This document shows, in pieces, positions 14,153 to 63,361 of a stretch of DNA of 64,000 bases (position 1 is the first letter of the stretch; every line of letters begins with the position of its first letter). The position numbers and the translations under genes were made by a program. The stretch is taken from NCBI GenBank assembly GCA_951406725.2, contig OX597824.1, positions 56,606,001 to 56,670,000 of the forward strand, read 5' to 3'. This DNA comes from Octopus vulgaris. Its lineage: Eukaryota. The notes below the pieces were generated by a model, which worked only from the letters and a program-made list of their open reading frames with translations, was not told the DNA's origin and did no database searches.

Positions 14153-15118
14153 ATGTATAAGGGTGCTGTCAATAGGGCAACAGTCAGCCATGAATACAGT
14201 GATGCATTTAATGTACAAGTTGTAGTTCTCAAGGGCTTGGTTCTTAGTCTCCTCTTATTCATCATAGTCCTCCAGGTTATAACAGAGGAATTTAAGACTA
14301 GTTGATCATGGAAATTATTATATGCTTAAGATCTTACTCTTATAGTGGAATGTGTAGCAGAATTGGAAAAGAAATTCCAGGTTTGGAAGCAAAACTTGGA
14401 ATCAAAGGGCCTTAGTTAACCTAGCAAAGACCAAAATTGTTGTTAGCAAGAAAGCAGGTAAGTCTCTCTTTCTGTCAGATAAATGGCCCTGTTCACTATG
14501 TAGGAAAGGTGCTGTAAGGAATTCCATTCAATGCACCCAGTGCAAGCTATGGATGCATAAGAGGTGCAATGGGATCGTGAGTAGAATAATACAGAAAGTA
14601 ATCTTTGTATGTGGTTGATGTATAGAAACAATAAACCCTAAGGACACATAGTAATTAGATTTTTTTTAATGCTCAGGAGGCTCTCTAGAGATTGTAGATA
14701 ATGTCTGTTACTTAGGGGACCAAATTAGCAATGAAGGAGGATGTTCTGAAAATATAGTTGCTAGAATAAGAATAGGATGGAGAAAGTTTTGAGAGCTATT
14801 ACCTCTGTTGGCAGCAAAAGGCCTCTCCCTTAGAGTGAAAGGCAGACTCTATGAAGCTTCTGTATGAACAGCTATACTCCATGGTGGCAGGACATGGGCC
14901 CTGAATGCATATGTTGTGTGTAAACTGGAGAGGAATGAAGCTAGCATTCTCTTAGGGATGTGCAACATCAGTGTGCATGTACAACAATGTCCAAATACAT
15001 CAGAAGGGGAACTAGGTATAAGAGAGATCAGATGTAGTATGCAAGAGAGAAGACGATTGTTTGGTCATGTGATGTGTATAAATGAGGACAGGTGTATAAC
15101 GAAGTAATGATTGCTTAA

Positions 15119-17837: not shown

Positions 17838-18349
17838 GTAGGTATTTATAAATTATTATTATATTACTGTCATGTAATAAAAATAATAATGGTTTGTGGT
17901 TTAGGCATAAGGTCAGGAATTATGAAGGGAAGAACTGGTCTTTAATTTGACCTTTTGGGTTTCATAAATTATAGTACCTGTCAAGTACTGAGATTAATGT
18001 GATTGACTAACCTCCACCTCCTGTTACTATTGCTGGCCATGTATCAAAATCAAACTCTGTTATCATTATTGCTCGGAAGATCTATGGAAATTCCAGTATG
18101 TTAGTCAGCATATTTAAAAACATGTTATATTAAACACAAGCAAAGAATTTCAAAAATTCTTTTGAAATCCTGCAATTTAATCAAAACTGTACTTTGAAAT
18201 ATATTCAAAATGAACTTAGAAGGTATTTATTTTCCTTCTTTGAATATAGTTGACAGATATGACATGCTTAATAGTTTAAGGAAATAAAAGATGAATTAAA
18301 ATAAAACTTATTTGTGTGTGTATATATGTGTATACATATATATATATAT

Positions 18350-18900
18350 ATATCAAGAAAAACATGTTTTAAATCTCTGAACGAGAGAAATACAGTAGCA
18401 GTACTGAATAGTAATGTTTATATGCCAACATAACATGGCAGTCATATAAAGGATGATGTAACATCGTCCTTTACAGGACTGCCATGTTATGTTGGCATAT
18501 AAACATTACTATTCGGTACTGCTACTGTATTTCTCTCGTTCAGAGATTTAAAACATGTTTTTCTTCTTGATATGAAATCAACAACTGTCGGTCGCTTAAA
18601 GAATATATAGTATTTATGAGTGGTAATAACTTTTGTCACAAGCTGGTGATTGTCTCACACTGAAGATGGATAACATTCAGAAACTTAGGTCTGTGAGTAT
18701 CACGTAAGGCCAGAGATGGGGGTGATGATCTCCCTTGCAAATACTATATATGAACACAAACTGTGTCAACAGCCAGCTGGAAAAGATGTTTCCCTGGGGC
18801 TAAAACAACAGGGAAACATCTTTTCCAGCTTGCTGTTGACACAGTTTGTGTCCATATATAGCATTTGTAAAGGAGGTCATCACTCCCATCTCTGGCCTTA
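18350..18900 (+). mobile_element. Fold-back retrozyme-like element, copy 2 (monomer 18461-18808 with inverted terminal arms)
   Basis: Hairpins 18350-18573 and 18705-18900 flank a hammerhead; TA-rich flanks; no meaningful ORF. Confidence 0.75.
18654..18697 (+). ncRNA. Type I hammerhead ribozyme
   Basis: ctcaca-CTGAAGA-tgga taaca ttca-GAAA-c ttag g-TC-tgtgag: 6-bp stem I, 4-bp stem II, short stem III, GUC triplet. Confidence 0.85.
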
Positions 18901-18908
18901 TATATTTA

Positions 18909-20201
18909 CAGGGTGGGGCTGAGAGGACAGACGTTTTTGAAAAATTCACAAAATCATTAATTTTAGCTGCAAACAAATTTTATTGACATCAGTGTGTTCG
19001 TATTAAATTAGCATTTGTCAAAATCACGTGTGGAAAACAACACCCATCATATGGTGTCCATTTTCATTGATAGATTTCTGAAGGCATTCTTGGAAGTTGG
19101 TTCCCACTCTCTCTCTCCAGCATTGCTCTGTTGATTTGGGCGACTTCTCTGCAGATAGCTTCATTCAAATTGTCTGATGTATGGGGCTTATGCACATGTA
19201 CACGTGCCTTGATGTTTCCCCACAAGAAATAATCACACATGGACAAATCGGGACCAAGGAGGCCAAGGAGTGTCTGCAAACCTTGAAATAAGGTATTCAT
19301 CAAAGAGTAGGCGAAGAACGTCCATTGATGCTCTGGCTGTATGGACTGTTGCCCCATCCTACTGAAACCACACACAATGAATAGGCATATGTTTACATCA
19401 TAATTCAGGCACGAAGAAGTTGTTTATCATCTTTATGTAATGCTCGGAGTTCACAGTAAATGATGGAAGCTTTTCCAACAGCACACCAGACCATCACTTT
19501 TGGGCTGTGCAGTTCTCTTGGATTTTCAAGAGCCTAATAATGACAGTTCTGTTGATTCACCATGCCATTGAGATAAAAATGAGCTTCATCACTCATTAAC
19601 AAAATGAGGTTGTCATTTGCCTCAGAAATTACTACCATCTGACGTGCGAAGTTAAGCTGCTGTGCATAGTTCCATGGTTTCAACTGTTGCCCAATGACCA
19701 ACTTGTATGGGTGGAAATGCAGGTCTTCATGTAAAATATACCTTATCGATCGATTACCGATGCCAAGTTCAGTGGAATGTTTATGAGCAAAACAATTTGA
19801 ACTCTGTATCAAAGCTTGTCTGATGTGTTCCATGTTTTCCAGGGTCTGTACTGTTCGTGGTGCCCCTGCCGGTCTCCTATTCATTATTGTACTTCATGTA
19901 TGAAGCGCATTCACCCAATGAAAGATTGTGTTACAGGTGGGAGCAGCCTAATTTTGGTGAATGTTGAAGTGGCGCCAAAACTCATGTTGAACTGCTAGGG
20001 CAGACTTGTTATTCTTCATGTAACTGTCGTCCATCAGGTAACTGTCATGTAACTATCGTCCACAGTGCCATGGCTTCCGCTGAAAAGAAAAAAAAATGCT
20101 AAGAGACCATGGATCAAATGGTACCTGTCGGATATATGTCCTTCTCTCTGGAGCTGAGTAATAGCCATTTCAAAAATGTTCAACCTCTCTACCCCATCTT
20201 G
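18909..20201 (-). mobile_element. Degraded full-length Tc1/mariner-superfamily transposon
   Basis: TA flanks, imperfect TIRs cagggtggggc.gagagg..acgtttttgaaa; remnants HFHPYK, MSDEAHFYLNGMVNQQN, FQQDGAT, PDLSMCDYFLWG. Confidence 0.88.
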
Positions 20202-20209
20202 TATATGTA

Positions 20210-20242
<33 letters not shown>

Positions 20243-52299: not shown

Positions 52300-55169
52300 T
52301 TAAAGATCACAATCTCTCCGCTCCATGTTGTAGTCTACCATCCAACCGGGAGAGCGCCTTGCTCGTCGAGATCTTCTCAAGCTGGGCTCCTCATTCTCCC
52401 CCTCTCCAGAATCATCGTCCGTCAAAGCAACAATCCTGCGAAGGTCCAAGACGTGTCGTGGTGTTCCATCTACGGATACGTTGCTTCTGGAATTGATCGC
52501 CGTCACCGTTCCTCTGCTCCATTGAGACGTACAGCGCGCCTTTGGTGGCTTGACCCAGACTTCCTCCCCTATTTTCACGCGAACGGGTCCCTTCTCTTCC
52601 TCGTGACCCTCCGGCGCTTTGCTCGGGTGCCTCCATTCATATTTGAACACAGCTCTCTGCGGCACAGATTCCTCAGCCTGTCCGGATCGGGGAGACAAGT
52701 TGTACCAAAAAACTGCTTCAAGCGGCGAAATGTGACCTCTTTCCGCTATGGCCTTGACTGTCCGATGGTGCCTCTCCACGATCCCGTTACCGCCTGGCCT
52801 ATACGCTGCTCTGAACAAGCGTCGCACGTTCCACCGATCAAGCATAACCCTCAATGCTTCCGAACGAAACGCCGCCCCGTTGTCCATCAGTAGTTCTTCC
52901 ACGGGACCTCTCTCTAAAAATATCCCGTTCAGGATCTGCACGATCTCGTCAGCAATGCCCGATCTCAACTCCTCCAAATGGCCAGCCGGCCCGGCCCACA
53001 GTCGACCATGGAGAGGTACATTCGGTGACGGTAGTGTGTCACATCCACAGCTAGCCTTTTCCAGTTCTGCTCCACGGAAAGGCTTCCCTGTTCATGCCCA
53101 CACGGAGCAGGGTCGATGGACTGACACCTGTCGCAGCTCCCGACCACCTTCCGGACGCTTCTCCTAGTGATGTCAGCATCAATTTTTTTTGCCAGATACA
53201 GGGTCCTGTCCACACCCAGGTGATGCATAGCGTGCAGTTTCTTCAGTTCAGGGTCATCCAACCGACATGCCGCAGCTATCCCTTTCCGGGCCTCCTCCGG
53301 TTCTTCCAACCACGCCCTTTTCACCCTGGTCAGTACGTTCGCCCTGTTTTTCTCCGAAGGCACGAAAACCACGTTCAGCTTCAGTCCGAATTCGGCGATC
53401 AATTCACCTAGAACTCCTAGACGGCGCTTCACTAACATCTCCGCAGCACCTTTCGTCCGCACTCTCCTGTCACCGGTGATCACCGATCCTACTCAGCCAA
53501 GCACAGTGGCCGAATCCGTCCGCATTTCAATCGTGCGCAGCCCCCATTTCAAGGCCAAGTTCACCCCTTTCAGCAGCGCGTCTAATTCGGCGACATTGAT
53601 GTGGTTGAAATCATCTGCTTTCCGAAGCCAGGCCGCGTCCTCCACCGCAGTGCCTTCGATTGCCAACACCACCCCTATCGCTATACTGCTAGCATCACAC
53701 CAGACGGTCCCGCATTTCGTCTTGGGCACGTACCAGTTCCCCCTGACCGGGTCTTCCGCTCTTGTCCTCTCTAGGATCTCCTGCATCATCGCCACCGTCC
53801 CTTCTCCCACCTTGTCGCCCCACCTTTCTCCTTCTGCTCGTCTCTTGGTGTAACTACACGCCGTGCGCAGCCATCCAGCGATCGGGTAGTGACCGACCAA
53901 CTTCCCACACACCGAGAACAGCTCTCTCCTGCTGACGCTGGAACTCAGCTCTGGGATTTCATTTCCTCTCCGGAACACCAATTCACCTGATCCATCTCTT
54001 CGCAGCTTCAGCCCCAGCGCGGCTCCCCCTTCAATCGACTCCGGTGGCTTAGCAATCAGTCCGAACTTCTCCAGATGTCTAACTACCTCGTCGGCTGGCA
54101 CTACAGTTTCGTCCACCAAAATGTCGTCAATGTAGGAGCTGGTGGCCTTTCTAATCTTGCCGTCTTTCCCTAGGACGGACCTAAGCACTGCCGCCATGAT
54201 CTTCGGAGCGGAATTCAGCCCGAAACCCAGCCTGGTTAGACAGTACGTCCGGCCCTTGTACCGCACCAGCTGATATCGCCACAGTTTGTCGCTCACATGG
54301 AGCTGCAAGTATGCCGATCTCAAGTCGACAATCGTCGCTGCCTCAGTCGACTGTCTCCACTTACGTAATGCCTCACCACAAACGTCTGTCGCCTCACCTC
54401 CCGTGTGACACGATATGTGCTGGTTTAGCTCCCTGAAGTCCAGCACCGGTCTGACTTTTCCCTTCGTAGGCTGCACCACCGCCATCAGGGGTAGCACTCC
54501 GCCCGCTACCTCCTCCTTCCAAGGGACAAGGACCCCTTCCTCGATCCACCTCTCCACCTCGTCTTCAAACTCGACCCTGGCGTGGCCTTTCAGGGTATGC
54601 TGGTAACAGCTCACCCTGTTCTCCAGCGTCGGGGGTTCGTCCTTCCATCGCCACTCTATCGTCCACCGCTGACCATCGAACGCCGCCTGAAAGTCTTTGT
54701 CCTCGATGGTGTAAGCGGCGCAGTCCCTCGTGGGGCTCTGCTCTCTCTGGCGATCCTGACTCGCAGTGCACGACGCCCCCACGCTTCCGAACGTGACCTC
54801 ATTTCCCACAACACTGACGGCACCGAGGCAGTTGATGGCGTCCATCCCCATCACCACATCAACTCCATCTATCACGCGTTCGGCCACAATTGCCTGCAGT
54901 CTTAGCGTCGCGCCGCGCACCACTATCTCTACCTTGCTGCTGCCTCTGCAACGGATTTCGCTGCCGTCGACCGCCCGGAAACTACTCACCCCGTTCCATT
55001 CCTTCGTCACCCTCGAAGTCACCAGGGTGGTCGTGCAGCCCGTATCCACAAGGGCCTTGAACGTCTCCCCCTCGGCCTCCACGTCAATCAATGGCAGCGT
55101 CTCCAATAGCGCCTCTACTCGTTTGAGGGGAAAGTTCGAGAGGCAGCAACTTCCCCGCGGTCGTTTCCC
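52300..55169 (-). CDS. Gypsy pol (PR-RT-RH-IN), -1 frame to gag; TGA at 53493-53495 and a frameshift near 52975
   Basis: Three ORF-track segments give a continuous PR-RT-RH-IN domain order. Confidence 0.92.
55108..55169 (-). promoter_or_regulatory. -1 ribosomal frameshift signal
   Basis: Slippery G GGA AAC (55163-55169) in gag frame, then ggggaagtt/aactttcccc stem and gcctct/agaggc second stem. Confidence 0.8.
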
Positions 55170-55879
55170 TGGCCGCAATCACGGGCAATGTGCCCTGTCT
55201 GCCTGCATCGATAGCAAACGGGCCCCGGCTGCGTACAGTCCCGCGCCATGTGCGGTCCCTGGCATCTAAAACACCGTCCTGAGAACGGCCACTCTCGTTG
55301 CACGGTGAGCTTCTGTACCTCTTTCTCGGGACGTCGTCCGTCTTTACGCGCCTCCGTCACCGCCATCGCTATCGCCTTCCGCCCAGAGTGTCTCGTCAAC
55401 GCGCGAGCATGAGCTACAAGTTCGCCCAATGGCATCTTTTTAACCCCGGGCAGTCGTTGTAGGTGAATCCCTACATCGTCGGGGAACCCATTCACGAACG
55501 CCAGTCGGGCTGCTCTCTCCAGTCCTTCTCCGGCAAACCCGGTTAGAGTCGCTAGCCTTCAAGCTTCTGATGCAAAGTCGTCCACTTGGCCTCCCGTCCA
55601 CCTGATTGCACCTAGCTTAGCGAAAGCTGTGTACTCGCATTCCGTGTATGCGTCACACAAGCGTCGCTCTATATTCTCATCGCTGAGCCGTTCCTCTTCA
55701 TCCATCTCTAGGTAGAGCGACAACGCGCTCCCTTCCAAATACAGCGCCATAAGACTCGCCACGTCGCTTATGCCCTGCAGTCTCGCCACCAGCCTGATTT
55801 TGCGAATCCAGGCCACTACATCGCCTTCGCCGTTAAAAGGTCTGACGACGTCACTGGCGATCCTAATTTTTGCAGACAT
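55115..55879 (-). CDS. Gypsy gag with one in-frame TGA (55559-55561)
   Basis: ORFs 55559-55879 and 55115-55495 are in the same frame; CFRCQGPHMARDC and CYRCRQTGHIARDC. Confidence 0.9.
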
Positions 55880-58410: not shown

Positions 58411-61400
58411 AACGGGAAGCTTTATGAAAATAGACAAAAGACGAAGGTAGGTTTACGGAAATAAACAAAAGACGAAGGCAGGTGGAATACAAACAAACAA
58501 TTGTATTAGTATGGCGCTCAGGAAATATAAATAAAACAAGTCTTTAACGTTTCGAGCCTACGCTCTTCAACAGAAAGATACACAGAGAAGAAACACAGAA
58601 AGAAGGAGAGAAAAAAAATGCGTGCAGAGGCTAGCGAATCAACATGGCGATCTGATTTCGGCCAGAAGTCAAAGATCAAACGTGAGACGCAAGAGCGAAA
58701 TTAGGGGAGATAATAGGGTTAAATGACCTCGCTCCAACATAAGAGTGTGTGTGTGTGTGTATGAGAAGAGTGTGTGTATGTGTATGAGAGAGTATTAGTG
58801 TGTATGAGAGGTCTGGACGTGTGTATGTATATATGATGTGATGTATAAAGTCGTATGGTGTAGTGTAGAGAGGAGATGAGGGAAGAGGGGGGAGGTAAGG
58901 GGCGAGAGAGGGGAGGGGTGAGGGGGAGGGGGGAAAGAAAGGGGAGAAGAGGAGGGGGAAGGGGGAGAAGGAAGAAGAGGAGAAGAGGAGGGTAGAGAAG
59001 GGGGAGAAGGAAGGAGAGGAGAAGAGGAGAAGAGGAGGGAGGATAGAGGGAGAGGGGGAGAGAGAGAGAGAAGGGGAGTGAGGGAGCAGAGAGAAAGAGG
59101 GAAGGGGAAGAGGGAAGAAGGAGGGAGGGAGAAAGAAGGAAGAAGGGAAAAGGAGTAGGGGTGAAAGGATGAAGGACTGAAGAGAAGTAGGGGTCGGGGG
59201 AGGTTAGATGAGGAGGGGGGAGATGGGGGGGGGTTAGATGAGGAGGGGGGAGAGTTGAGACCAAATGGCGTATAAGAGCGAAGAGAGAAGATTAATTCCT
59301 GTTCACGGCGCAAACGGGAATCCGGATGGCCTCTGTGCAAGGACAAACCGAACACAGACAGGTGTTGCAAGGAGTGACCGGTGGAGCGGAAATGGCGTGA
59401 GACCGGTGTGTCGTTCGCAAGGCGGATGTCACGGAGGTGTTCCGCGAACCGGTCAGCCAAGCGGCGTCCCGTTTGTCTGATGTACAGGGAATGGCAGAGA
59501 GAGCAAGAGACGCAATAGATAATATTGCTGGAGGTGCAGGTGAAGGAGTTGATGATGCGATAGGGTCGATGATGGGTGTCAGTGAGGAGGGTGGTGTTGG
59601 AGAGGTAAGGGCAAGTGCGGCAACGTGGGCGGGAGCAGGGGAACGAGCCAGGTTGGGAGGTAGGGTCAGGGAAGGAGCTATGGACCAAAAGGTCTCGAAG
59701 GTTATGGGCTCGTTTGAAAGAGGGGAGGGGTCGGTTAGGGAAGAGGTGTGAAGTGGACGGGTCGGACTGGAGATGACGGAAAGCTCGAAGAATGGTGCGT
59801 TGGAGAGGTAGGGTAGTGGGGTGGTAAGTGAGGGGAAAAGGGAGGCGGGAGACTACAGGGAGGGTTCGGGAAGAGAGAGCAGATACACGGTCCACGGAAC
59901 GTGCTCTGGCAAGGGCGGTGTGGATAGTGGTGAGGGGGTATCCACGTAGGATGAAGTGGTGAGCCATATGTTGAGACTGAGTCTCAAAGTCATGGTCGTC
60001 ACTACAGAGCCTACGTAGACGGAGGAATTGGGAATAGGGGATGGAAAGCTTGGTGTGTTCTGGGTGGGAGGAAGAGAAGTTGAGGTATGAGTGTGAGTCT
60101 GTGTATTTGTAGTGAATGGAGGTGGTAAGAGTGGAGTGAAGAATGCTAACCGAAATGTCGAGGAAGGAGACAGAGGTGTTGGAGATAGTGGAAGTGAAGT
60201 GGAGGGCTGGATGGAAAGATTGAACGAAAGAGAGGAAGGAATCTAGATGTTCACGGGAGAGTGAGGTGGCACCGATAATGTCGTCAATGTAACGACCGTA
60301 TAGTTCAGGAGTGGGACCAGTGAAATTAGAGAATATTTGGGCCTCAACATAGCCAACGAACAGGTTCGCATAGTTGGGGCCCATTCGCGTTCCCATGGCC
60401 ACTCCCGAGAACTGATGGTAGAACTCGCCCGTGAACGAGAAGCAGTTAAGAGTAAGGACAAATTCGGCCAGACGAATGAGTGTGGAGGTGTCAGGTTCAG
60501 GGTTGGAGCGGAGGTCGAGGAAGTGTTGAAGTGCCTGCAGTCCTTCGTGGTGAGGGATAACGGTACAGAGGCTCTGAATGTCCATAGTAAAAAGGATTTT
60601 GGAGGAGCCGGGAGGAAAGGAGAAAGAGTTGAAAAGCCGGAGAGCATGGTTGGTATCGTGGATGTGGGAGGGAAGAGACGCCACTAGGGGGGCAAGGACA
60701 CGGTCGAGATGAGCTCCGTGGGACAGTTACAGGCGGAGACAATGGGGCGGCCAGGGTTGTTGGGTTTGTGGATTTTGGGGAGGAAGTAAATGGTGGGGGT
60801 ACGTGGGATTCGCACAATTAGGTTGGATGCGGTGTGGGGGAGACGGGAGGACGAGATGAGGTCGTGGACAGTAGAGGATACCGTCTGTTGGTAGCTACGT
60901 GTGGGGTTAGAGGACAGAGGGGAGTAGAAGGAGGTGTCATTGAGTTGGCGGAGAGCCTCGGCCCTGTAGAGGTCCGCGCGCCACACCACTACAGCTCCAC
61001 CCTTGTCAGCCGGTTTGATGATAATGTCAGCGCGCCGTTGGAGGGAACGAAGAGCCGAGAGCTCGGCCGGGGAGATGTTGAGGCGGCGTTGGCGCCTGGA
61101 GAAGTTGAACCGCTCCAATGCACGCTGACAAGCGCCCGCGAAAAGATCCACTGCTAGGAACTGGCCGGGGGCAGGCGTCCACGAGGATGGTCGGCGGCCC
61201 AGGTCAGTGAAGCGGTCCTCTTCGTTGGATGCGGGTGGTGAGTCGCGGAAATGCGCACCCAACCGGACGTGGCGCACAAAGCTGTGGACATCAACTCGCG
61301 TCTGGAATTCCTTACAGGATGGAGTGAGGGGGATGAAACGCAGACCCCCTACTAAGGACGGAGCGTTCCGCCGCAGAGAGGGGAAGATCAGGGGGGGAAT

Positions 61401-63361
61401 GGTAACAACAGACGGAAGTGGAGAAGGGGTGGGTGGAATAGAAGTAGGAGGGGTGGTAGGGCTCGTGGAGGTCTGAGGGGGAGGGATTGGGGAGGTGTGT
61501 GTGGGGTTGTTGGGAGGGGCAGTAGGGTTAGGTGTAGGTAGATGGAGCCTATCAGGAGGGGAGGAGGGGTTGTTGGGAGGGGCAGTAGGGTTAGGTGTGG
61601 GTGGATGGAGCCTATCGGGAGGGGAGAAGGGTAGTGGAGGAGTTGGGGTGGTGGCGTCGGGTGTGGTGGAATTGAGGAGTGATTGGAGTTTACGAAGTTT
61701 GGTATCGGAAAGAAATTGATGGAAGAGGTGATTCAAATGGATAATGAAGCGTAGCGTGTTTGGAGCATAGAAAGGCGGCAGAGAGGAGAAAAACGTGAGG
61801 AAAGCAGGAGGAAGAAGGCGGTTGATGGTATGTAGTTTAGAGAGATTGGAGCGAATGGTGGCCCGCATAAGGCGGTAAGATGTGGTGCGGAGTATGGGTA
61901 AGATGGAAGAATCCGAGTGGAGAGCAGGGTGGAAGTGGAGGCGGAAACCTTTAGGGATGAGTCGGTGATGTAGGCAGCGGCTTAGGAAAGAGACATGGCT
62001 AGAGAAGCGGGTTTTTTAAAAAAGAAGCAGAGAGAGATTAATGGACGGCTGAAAACAGTTTAGGGGGAGAGGGCGGAGGTGATCCTTCAAACGGTGGTGG
62101 ATAGTGAGAAGGTAGGATTTGTAGTCAGGCATGGTGGGATAGTGAAAAAAAGGGGAAAAACCAAACGTTCGAAAAAAAAAACAACATAAAAAGCAATCGT
62201 ATGAAAAAACTAGATAAAAAAAGCGGTAGGGGCAGAAAATAAAGGCGGAGAAGATAGGGCAAATGGAAAAAGGAAAGAAAGAAGGGAAGCAGAGAGAGGG
62301 GGAGGCAAAAAAGGGGGTGCAGGCAGAGGAAACAGAGTATGGACATCCAGAGAAGGAAGAAACGACGGAAAGGAGGACAAAACTGCAGGAAAATGTGGAA
62401 AGTATGAAATGAATGTAAAAAAAGGATAATATATGAGAAAATAAAAATAAAACGAACGGGACAGTTTATGCGAACAAGTTCAAGGTTGAGAGTTCAAGGT
62501 TAGAAATGTATAGACGTCGTGGTATATTTTTTAAGGATTTCACATCAATAACAAAGTCACTTTGATCCGTGAAAGAGAGGTGCAGCCAATGGTAAGTATC
62601 CAAGGGGTAAAGAAAATCCAATGTAGAGGTAAGAGTTGATAGTGGTGTTGGTAGAATATAGGATGAAAGTGAGACCACGTGAGCGCGTAATATATAACGG
62701 GAAGCTTTATGAAAATAGACAAAAGACGAAGGCAGGTTTACGGAAACAAACAAAAGACGAAGGCAGGTGGAATACAAACAAACAATTGTATTAGTATGGC
62801 GCTCAGGAAATATAAATAAAACAAGTCTTTAACGTTTCGAGCCTACGCTCTTCAACAGAAAGATACACAGAGAAGAAACACAGAAAGAAGGAGAGAAAAA
62901 AATGCGTGCAGAGGCTAGCGAATCAACATGGCGATCTGATTTCGGCCAGAAGTCAAAGATCAAACGTGAGACGCAAGAGCGAAATTAGGGGAGATAATAG
63001 GGTTAAATGACCTCGCGCCAACATAAGAGTGTGTGTGTGTGTGTGTATGAGAAGAGTGTGTGTGTGTGTATGAGAGAGTATTAGTGCGTATGAGAGGTCT
63101 GGACGTGTGTATGTATATATGATGTGATGTGTAAAGTCGTATGGTGTAGTGTACAGAGAGGAGATGAGGGAAGAGGGGGGAGAGAGGGGAGGGTGAGGGT
63201 GAGGGGGGAGAAAGAAAGGGGAGAAGAGGGGAGAAGGAAAGGGGAGAAGAGGAGAAGAGAAGGGGGAGAAGGAAGGAGAGGAGAAGAGGAGGGGAGAGAA
63301 GGGGGAGAAGGAAGGAGAGGAGAAGAGGAGGGGAGAGGAGGAGGGAGGATAGAGGGAGAGG

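Follow-up and report, generated by a model that had tools for sequence, protein, structure and literature searches.

The window analysed here is a stretch of 64,000 nt of the Octopus vulgaris genome (assembly GCA_951406725.2, contig OX597824.1, positions 56,606,001 to 56,670,000). It contains one full turn of a dispersed repeat, here called family A, with an inverted arm on either side and a predicted hammerhead motif inside (Table 1); unit coordinates (u) are window positions minus 18457. The element is non-coding, as the initial annotation had it, all open reading frames overlapping it being 68 aa or shorter, and the inverted arms reported at its two ends are present, about 110 nt long on the left and 92 nt on the right. 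The left arms (18355-18459 and 18461-18565) match over 105 nt with 96% identity and a spacer of 1 nt, the figure of about 110 nt including an extension over a 3-nt indel to approximately position 18350. The right arms (18705-18796 and 18809-18900) match over 92 nt with 92% identity and a spacer of 12 nt. The right arm had been taken for an inverted copy of the last 92 nt or so of the unit; its length is as described, but its template ends 12 nt before position 18808. The natural ends assigned to a 348-nt unit (18461-18808) have to be given up, as this segment corresponds to a single turn of a repeat that has a 354-nt period and is circularly permuted, u354 continuing into u1.

Table 1. Features of the repeat, its surroundings and a related insertion in the window.
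Feature	Position	Strand	Remarks
Second insertion, family B	13681..14155		head-to-head, short and long end, 11-bp target-site duplication
TA-rich microsatellite, left target	18307..18353		final bases shared with the end of the left arm
Left arm, element u4 to ~u114	18350..18459	-	terminates at the long 3' end of family A
Head-to-head junction	18458..18462		2-nt overlap around one unpaired base
Full 354-nt turn of family A	18458..18811	+	GC 38%; 11.6% of letters differ from the commonest in their column
Predicted type I hammerhead motif	18654..18697	+	11 of 11 core positions; predicted cut after 18691
Right junction	18794..18811	+	3-nt overlap, 18809-18811 pairing with 18794-18796; closes a 12-nt loop
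Right arm, inverted copy of u248-u339	18809..18900	-	stands where family copies have the u1-55 short end
Decayed, presumably Tc1/mariner-like transposon	18901..20210	-	neighbour, not part of the element; inside the TA-rich right target, 6-7 nt from the right arm

The predicted hammerhead consists of a 6-bp stem I, the core CUGAAGA/GAAA, a 5-bp stem II and a 2-bp stem III with a 4-nt loop, the GUC triplet ending at position 18691. A strict motif scan gave one match in the window and none in 100 shuffled windows; together with covariation across family A and two sister families, B and C, this upholds the initial description of the motif as a complete type I hammerhead. Detection by covariance models, which had been proposed as a check, failed: the Rfam models did not recognise the window motif at the gathering score or at E-values up to 10, and the units in four family loci were also without a hammerhead match, a weak Hammerhead_1 match lying elsewhere in locus L158. 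For the isolated window motif, the hammerhead fold has a predicted energy of -3.8 kcal/mol versus -8.2 kcal/mol for the minimum-energy structure. The window monomer folds no better than shuffled sequences (z = -0.15 linear, -0.9 circular), while values of -2.1 to -2.8 were obtained for three other family A monomers and of -5.5 to -6.6 for family B monomers.

In an alignment of 19 copies of families A, B and C, 95% of the hammerhead cells are paired (21-53% in slid controls), and changes on both sides were found in 13 of 18 hammerhead pairs, including all six of stem I, which amount to few events, as only three families are compared and nine of the family A copies were drawn from a core-directed search. 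Hairpins beyond the hammerhead covary as well (20 of 63 predicted pairs). All core positions are kept in 29 of 57 unselected family A segments. A third sister family, D, has U3-A8 in place of C3-G8 in 37 of 38 motifs, a replacement described as natural and active (PMC3088659). Stem III with its loop is palindromic in all four families, its sequence differing between them; palindromic loops III have been linked to dimeric cleavage, and in combination with a 6-bp stem I they match the canonical retrozyme motifs given in the same paper (PMC4209133). From this pattern of substitutions we infer that the predicted hammerhead is under selection at the level of the family.

A search of the genome (2.8 Gb, 227 contigs) with the unit returned 1914 candidate places, of which the best 40 were scored, the top matches other than the window copy being 84-85% identical. 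An exact 21-mer of the unit occurs 72 times, which scales to approximately 400 segments; family A is thus a dispersed repeat of a few hundred copies. Eighty-eight loci were fetched and ten removed as representing the same place, leaving 78 family A loci. The periods of all four families lie within 350-362 nt. Family D (loci L221-L250; example G000:C2:172255019-172256307) has a period of 362 nt and 96-98% identity between copies, and is the youngest of the sisters. Copies are partial tandems, with runs of about 280 nt in the median and up to 731 nt in family A and 1085 nt in family B; arrays of up to about three turns were seen, beginning at an inversion and not at a reading frame. Dimers and trimers exist at the family level; the window copy, with its single hammerhead, could not on its own give rise to a monomer circle. 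As a test for a circular template, the sharing of locus-private alleles between tandem monomers gave a mixed picture: such alleles are shared at 2.0 (A) and 2.9 (B) per 1000 sites, the values between loci being 0.13 and 0.30, but at 0 of 2388 sites in D, the youngest family.

The 3' ends of the copies are fixed at two positions. The stretch u40-u135 contains the ends of 102 family A segments, 44 of them at u54-57 (the short end) and 41 at u94-124 (the long end), about 55 nt apart, and both ends mostly run into TA or TC repeats. Family D ends at its own positions 59 and 118. The 5' ends of family A, by contrast, are spread across the whole unit and fall within 5 nt of the predicted hammerhead cut in 1 of 113 cases; as they do not cluster there, the template appears to have been read through that site. 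In one insertion, two family A pieces are separated by antisense 28S rRNA sequence of about 290 nt (L003:1177-1466), which suggests that the reverse transcriptase switched template onto rRNA.

Head-to-head joins were found in 29 of 78 loci in family A, 15 of 19 in B, 4 of 20 in C and 15 of 29 in D. The initial annotation had proposed tabulating copy starts and inverted arms over the genome; in this tabulation head-to-head arms turned out to be common and the double hairpin to be confined to 1 of the 78 family A loci and none of the 68 loci of B, C and D. Tail-to-tail joins occur in two family A loci, namely the window copy and L032, the latter doubtful with its 40-nt gap, and are absent from the 68 loci of the sister families. 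The idea that insertion of this family as a rule yields a double-hairpin single monomer is therefore abandoned, the window copy being the sole such case among the 78 loci. A search with the right junction agrees: among the best 40 of 731 candidates, which were scored, a match across the junction was obtained at the window locus only.

The outer ends of the head-to-head clusters follow a pattern. The 29 clusters of family A comprise 16 with one long and one short end, two with two short ends, none with two long ends and 11 that are unclassifiable, the long-plus-short combination accounting for 16 of 18 classifiable pairs (p = 5.5e-4). The same combination was found in 14 of 15 pairs of family B (14 of 14 classifiable) and, by hand count, in 11 of 15 pairs of family D (11 of 11 classifiable, the rest being unclassifiable; L228 and L242 resemble one duplicated locus), with the informative part in B and D being the other end, which is never long, since the searches in these two families required one long end. 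Target duplications of 7-18 bp were observed in copies of A, B and D where the flank is not a microsatellite; at the window copy the duplication is ambiguous inside the TA repeat.

These features resemble those reported for Penelope-like elements, whose insertions are described as 5'-truncated, tandem or inverted, often with a tail of 30-40 bp at one end (PMC8557442). In vitro, a Penelope-like enzyme was reported to nick both strands of AT-rich DNA and to start at two internal RNA positions matching the tail; the enzyme is a predicted dimer, and hammerhead cleavage was not needed (PMC11167929). With the endonuclease-positive elements of these two papers (Neptune, Penelope/Poseidon, Naiad) the octopus repeats share the two 3' ends, 5' truncation, tandem and inverted joins and TA-rich targets, as well as a hammerhead approximately 175-230 nt upstream of the ends and cDNA that passes the hammerhead site. 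They differ in that the unit has no RT or GIY-YIG frame, is circularly permuted and shows no sequence relation to any coding element examined; moreover, the tail is 52-59 nt long in these families versus the 30-40 nt reported. Judged by its sequence traits, the combination of fixed 3' ends, head-to-head long-plus-short pairs and TA-rich targets is the published Penelope-like insertion signature, here without the frame.

LINE-1 twin-priming inversions likewise involve primers from both target nicks and a join over short microhomology. The octopus insertions differ from them in that both primers would start at fixed internal sites near the 3' region of the RNA, both outer ends being consequently 3' ends.

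Taken together, the repeat in the window is probably a decayed copy of a 354-nt non-LTR retrozyme, likely inserted by a Penelope-like reverse transcriptase-endonuclease, with its right hairpin likely resulting from a single template switch in this copy. The following scheme would account for the family. Tandem transcripts would self-cleave by means of paired hammerheads and probably circularise. A Penelope-type protein would nick both strands of AT-rich DNA, and each nick would prime reverse transcription from one of two internal sites of the RNA separated by about 55 nt. Microhomology of 2-3 nt would then allow the two truncated cDNAs to join at their 3' ends, which would produce the head-to-head arrangement. 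In the window copy, the cDNA from the long start may have halted after about 107 nt near u4, forming the left arm, and been joined over 2 nt, after which the strand would have copied the other cDNA for one full turn. At the imperfect palindrome of the monomer joint it would have turned back on itself, and after 92 nt of self-copying it would have reached the TA target again, with loss of the short end.

The left arm ends at the long 3' end of the family beside a TA repeat and is therefore best read as target-primed cDNA. Snap-back synthesis, which had been suggested for both cDNA ends, remains a fair description of the right arm only. The right junction sits within a natural imperfect palindrome across the monomer joint, and the right fold-back is an accident of one copy, not a feature of the family.

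A less probable origin of the right arm, which nevertheless deserves attention, is a template switch in replication or repair after insertion, at the same imperfect palindrome, that removed the short end, possibly at a break beside the mariner-like insertion, the arms having been homogenised later. The position of the junction within the palindrome, its 3-nt overlap, the mariner-like element beginning 6-7 nt from the arm and the lack of tail-to-tail joins in the 68 loci of the younger families B, C and D would all fit such an event, and short-loop inverted pairs are slightly more alike than others (87% vs 85%). The differences between arms and templates argue against a recent one: they number 5 of 108 on the left and 7 of 92 on the right (p = 0.39), the right arm being no closer to the middle copy than the left. 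Both arms retain the family letter at several differing sites, the right arm at four sites changed in the middle, which marks them as old duplications; they were not copied from the middle in its present state. Rare variants of the middle copy are found in both arms, and the arm identity of 94% exceeds the family within-locus mean of 85% (p = 3e-4). This high identity would fit either a recent insertion whose template had already diverged or subsequent conversion between the arms, and so it does not date the right arm. The window copy has no close sibling among the scored candidates, the best other match being 85% identical, and no other copy carries more than four of its 21 rarer variants.

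The genome contains Penelope-like elements with intact 781-aa RT and GIY-YIG frames, TA targets and ends 40 nt apart, which we take to be of Neptune type, judging by the zinc-finger linker. With these, the repeat families, the fixed ends and the covariation, the initial proposal of a retrozyme-like non-coding hammerhead family linked to Penelope elements holds. It could be argued that the units are merely tandem terminal repeats of a coding Penelope-like element, the body of which is unreached in truncated copies, and that no separate retrozyme exists. In keeping with this reading, the copies insert with the geometry known from Penelope elements, their runs are short, at about 280 nt in the median, and the best 40 candidates were scored per search; we nonetheless consider it improbable. 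Past the monomer joint, the upstream sequence is always another monomer; the 61 free 5' flanks in family A include none that share sequence at a fixed unit position; arrays, which reach up to three turns, start from an inversion and not from a frame; the terminal repeats of the coding elements examined are unrelated; and the hammerheads have the canonical retrozyme form.

A Penelope-type frame joined to the 5' side of the unit was found in none of 78 A, 39 B/C and 29 D loci with 1.5-kb flanks; a coding parent may lie beyond these flanks or outside the best candidates scored. Profiles of A, B and C over 82 endonuclease loci revealed independent insertions only and no unit serving as a terminal repeat; the unit copies near endonuclease domains in L123, L107, L177 and L186 are such insertions. 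A weak match of u91-119 to the repeat of the 781-aa element is on the opposite strand and was judged to be due to chance.

The model of the initial annotation, a single-monomer insertion in which the cDNA snaps back at both ends, is very unlikely: the 2-3 nt of self-complementary overlap at both junctions and the variants common to both arms and the middle agree with it, but its rarity over the loci contradicts it as a family rule, the left arm ends at the fixed long end, and the family B insertion of this window shows the usual head-to-head arrangement. Equally far-fetched are a fold-back artefact of reads or assembly and a MITE with terminal inverted repeats. In the contigs listed from three other DNA-like runs neither junction is bridged and the right arm is uncovered at 98%, an absence that proves nothing; the arms differ from their templates at five and seven sites, several of them ancestral, and other runs hold the middle, a 59-mer specific to the left arm, and the left arm with its flank. 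As for a MITE, no fixed inverted ends were found: the outer ends of the window copy are unrelated, not inverted copies of one another, and the 5' ends vary freely over the whole unit.

The families compare well with metazoan non-LTR retrozymes, of which the mussel repeats are approximately 350-390 bp long (PMC7229834). Shared with the retrozymes of that paper and of a recent preprint (10.64898/2026.07.22.740005) are a non-coding monomer of 350-362 nt with less than 45% GC, one type I hammerhead per turn, tandem copies, target duplications of more than 4 bp and the presence of Penelope-like elements in the same genome. In size and composition the unit (354 nt, 38% GC; sisters 350-362 nt) lies within the retrozyme range of about 170-400 nt and low GC, and at the family level there are tandem copies with at least two hammerheads, no coding frame and target duplications longer than 4 bp. 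The octopus families, known from sequence alone, differ in that their tandems are short and partial, their 3' ends fall at two fixed positions and their copies are often paired head to head; PMC7229834 nowhere uses the word "inverted" in its main text. The four families are probably further members of the known non-LTR retrozyme type, with cleavage and circles predicted. None of the sequencing runs found to contain the unit is recorded as RNA; one presumed-RNA run yielded a 268-nt contig over 18454-18721 with eight differences at a depth of 2.5, too little to serve as evidence of expression, and a second such run gave no matching contig.

As mobilisers of animal retrozymes, Penelope-like elements are named as strong candidates in the discussion of PMC7229834, and the preprint (Li et al., 2026) derives retrozymes from Penelope repeats by phylogeny and co-occurrence, leaving the mechanism as future work. 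In the literature on retrozymes or hammerheads in octopus and other cephalopods, Penelope-like twin priming and head-to-head retrozymes, neither these families nor a long-plus-short rule in a retrozyme was found described, repeat databases lying outside that search. The four non-coding families bear the mechanistic fingerprint itself, namely two start sites, one per end, head-to-head joins and target duplications. For testing in vitro they offer a specific RNA with defined start positions, together with candidate enzymes. Their value lies in this insertion signature and in the young family D; the double hairpin of the window copy matters little. More tentatively, and with slightly less than an even chance in our estimate, four or more non-coding hammerhead circles of one clade may hijack a dimeric Penelope-type enzyme that always fires twice, using each fixed RNA start site, one per target strand, such that full insertions would each combine a long with a short end, and family D, with its compensated U3-A8 core and 97% identity, may be still or recently active. 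If so, family D would be ready-made material for demonstrating that retrozymes are mobilised by Penelope enzymes.

Several other observations were made in the window and the genome. Separate 359-aa frames without a Pfam match precede the 781-aa frame in L119 (906-4590) and likewise in L120 and L129. On the minus strand of the window, a Penelope-like element with an RT match (58430-62015), presumably carrying a Neptune-type linker, has its own minimal hammerhead-like motif at approximately 58570-58540, unrelated to the unit. A decayed GIY-YIG-like fragment at 4697-5317 represents another Penelope-type family, the relatives of which have frames of up to 960 aa; Pfam gave no RT or GIY-YIG match for two further long frames of these relatives, and other long GIY-YIG frames exist in the genome. 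Hammerhead-like motifs with a palindromic stem III were also found in other repeats (L201, plus strand, 1918; L122, minus strand, 3034; L124, plus strand, 6786), and further retrozyme or Penelope families in this genome are likely.

A transcript through the element would form double-stranded stems of 105 and 92 bp. The flanking repeats appear to resemble octopus SINEs, and the assignment of the neighbouring transposon (Table 1) is assumed from its transposase motifs. The window also contains a UBX-domain exon (28662-28850; Pfam PF00789) and, at 52300-55558 and 31731-33518, LTR-retrotransposon-like frames with protease and RNase H-like matches, together with a DUF4371 hAT-like transposase frame.
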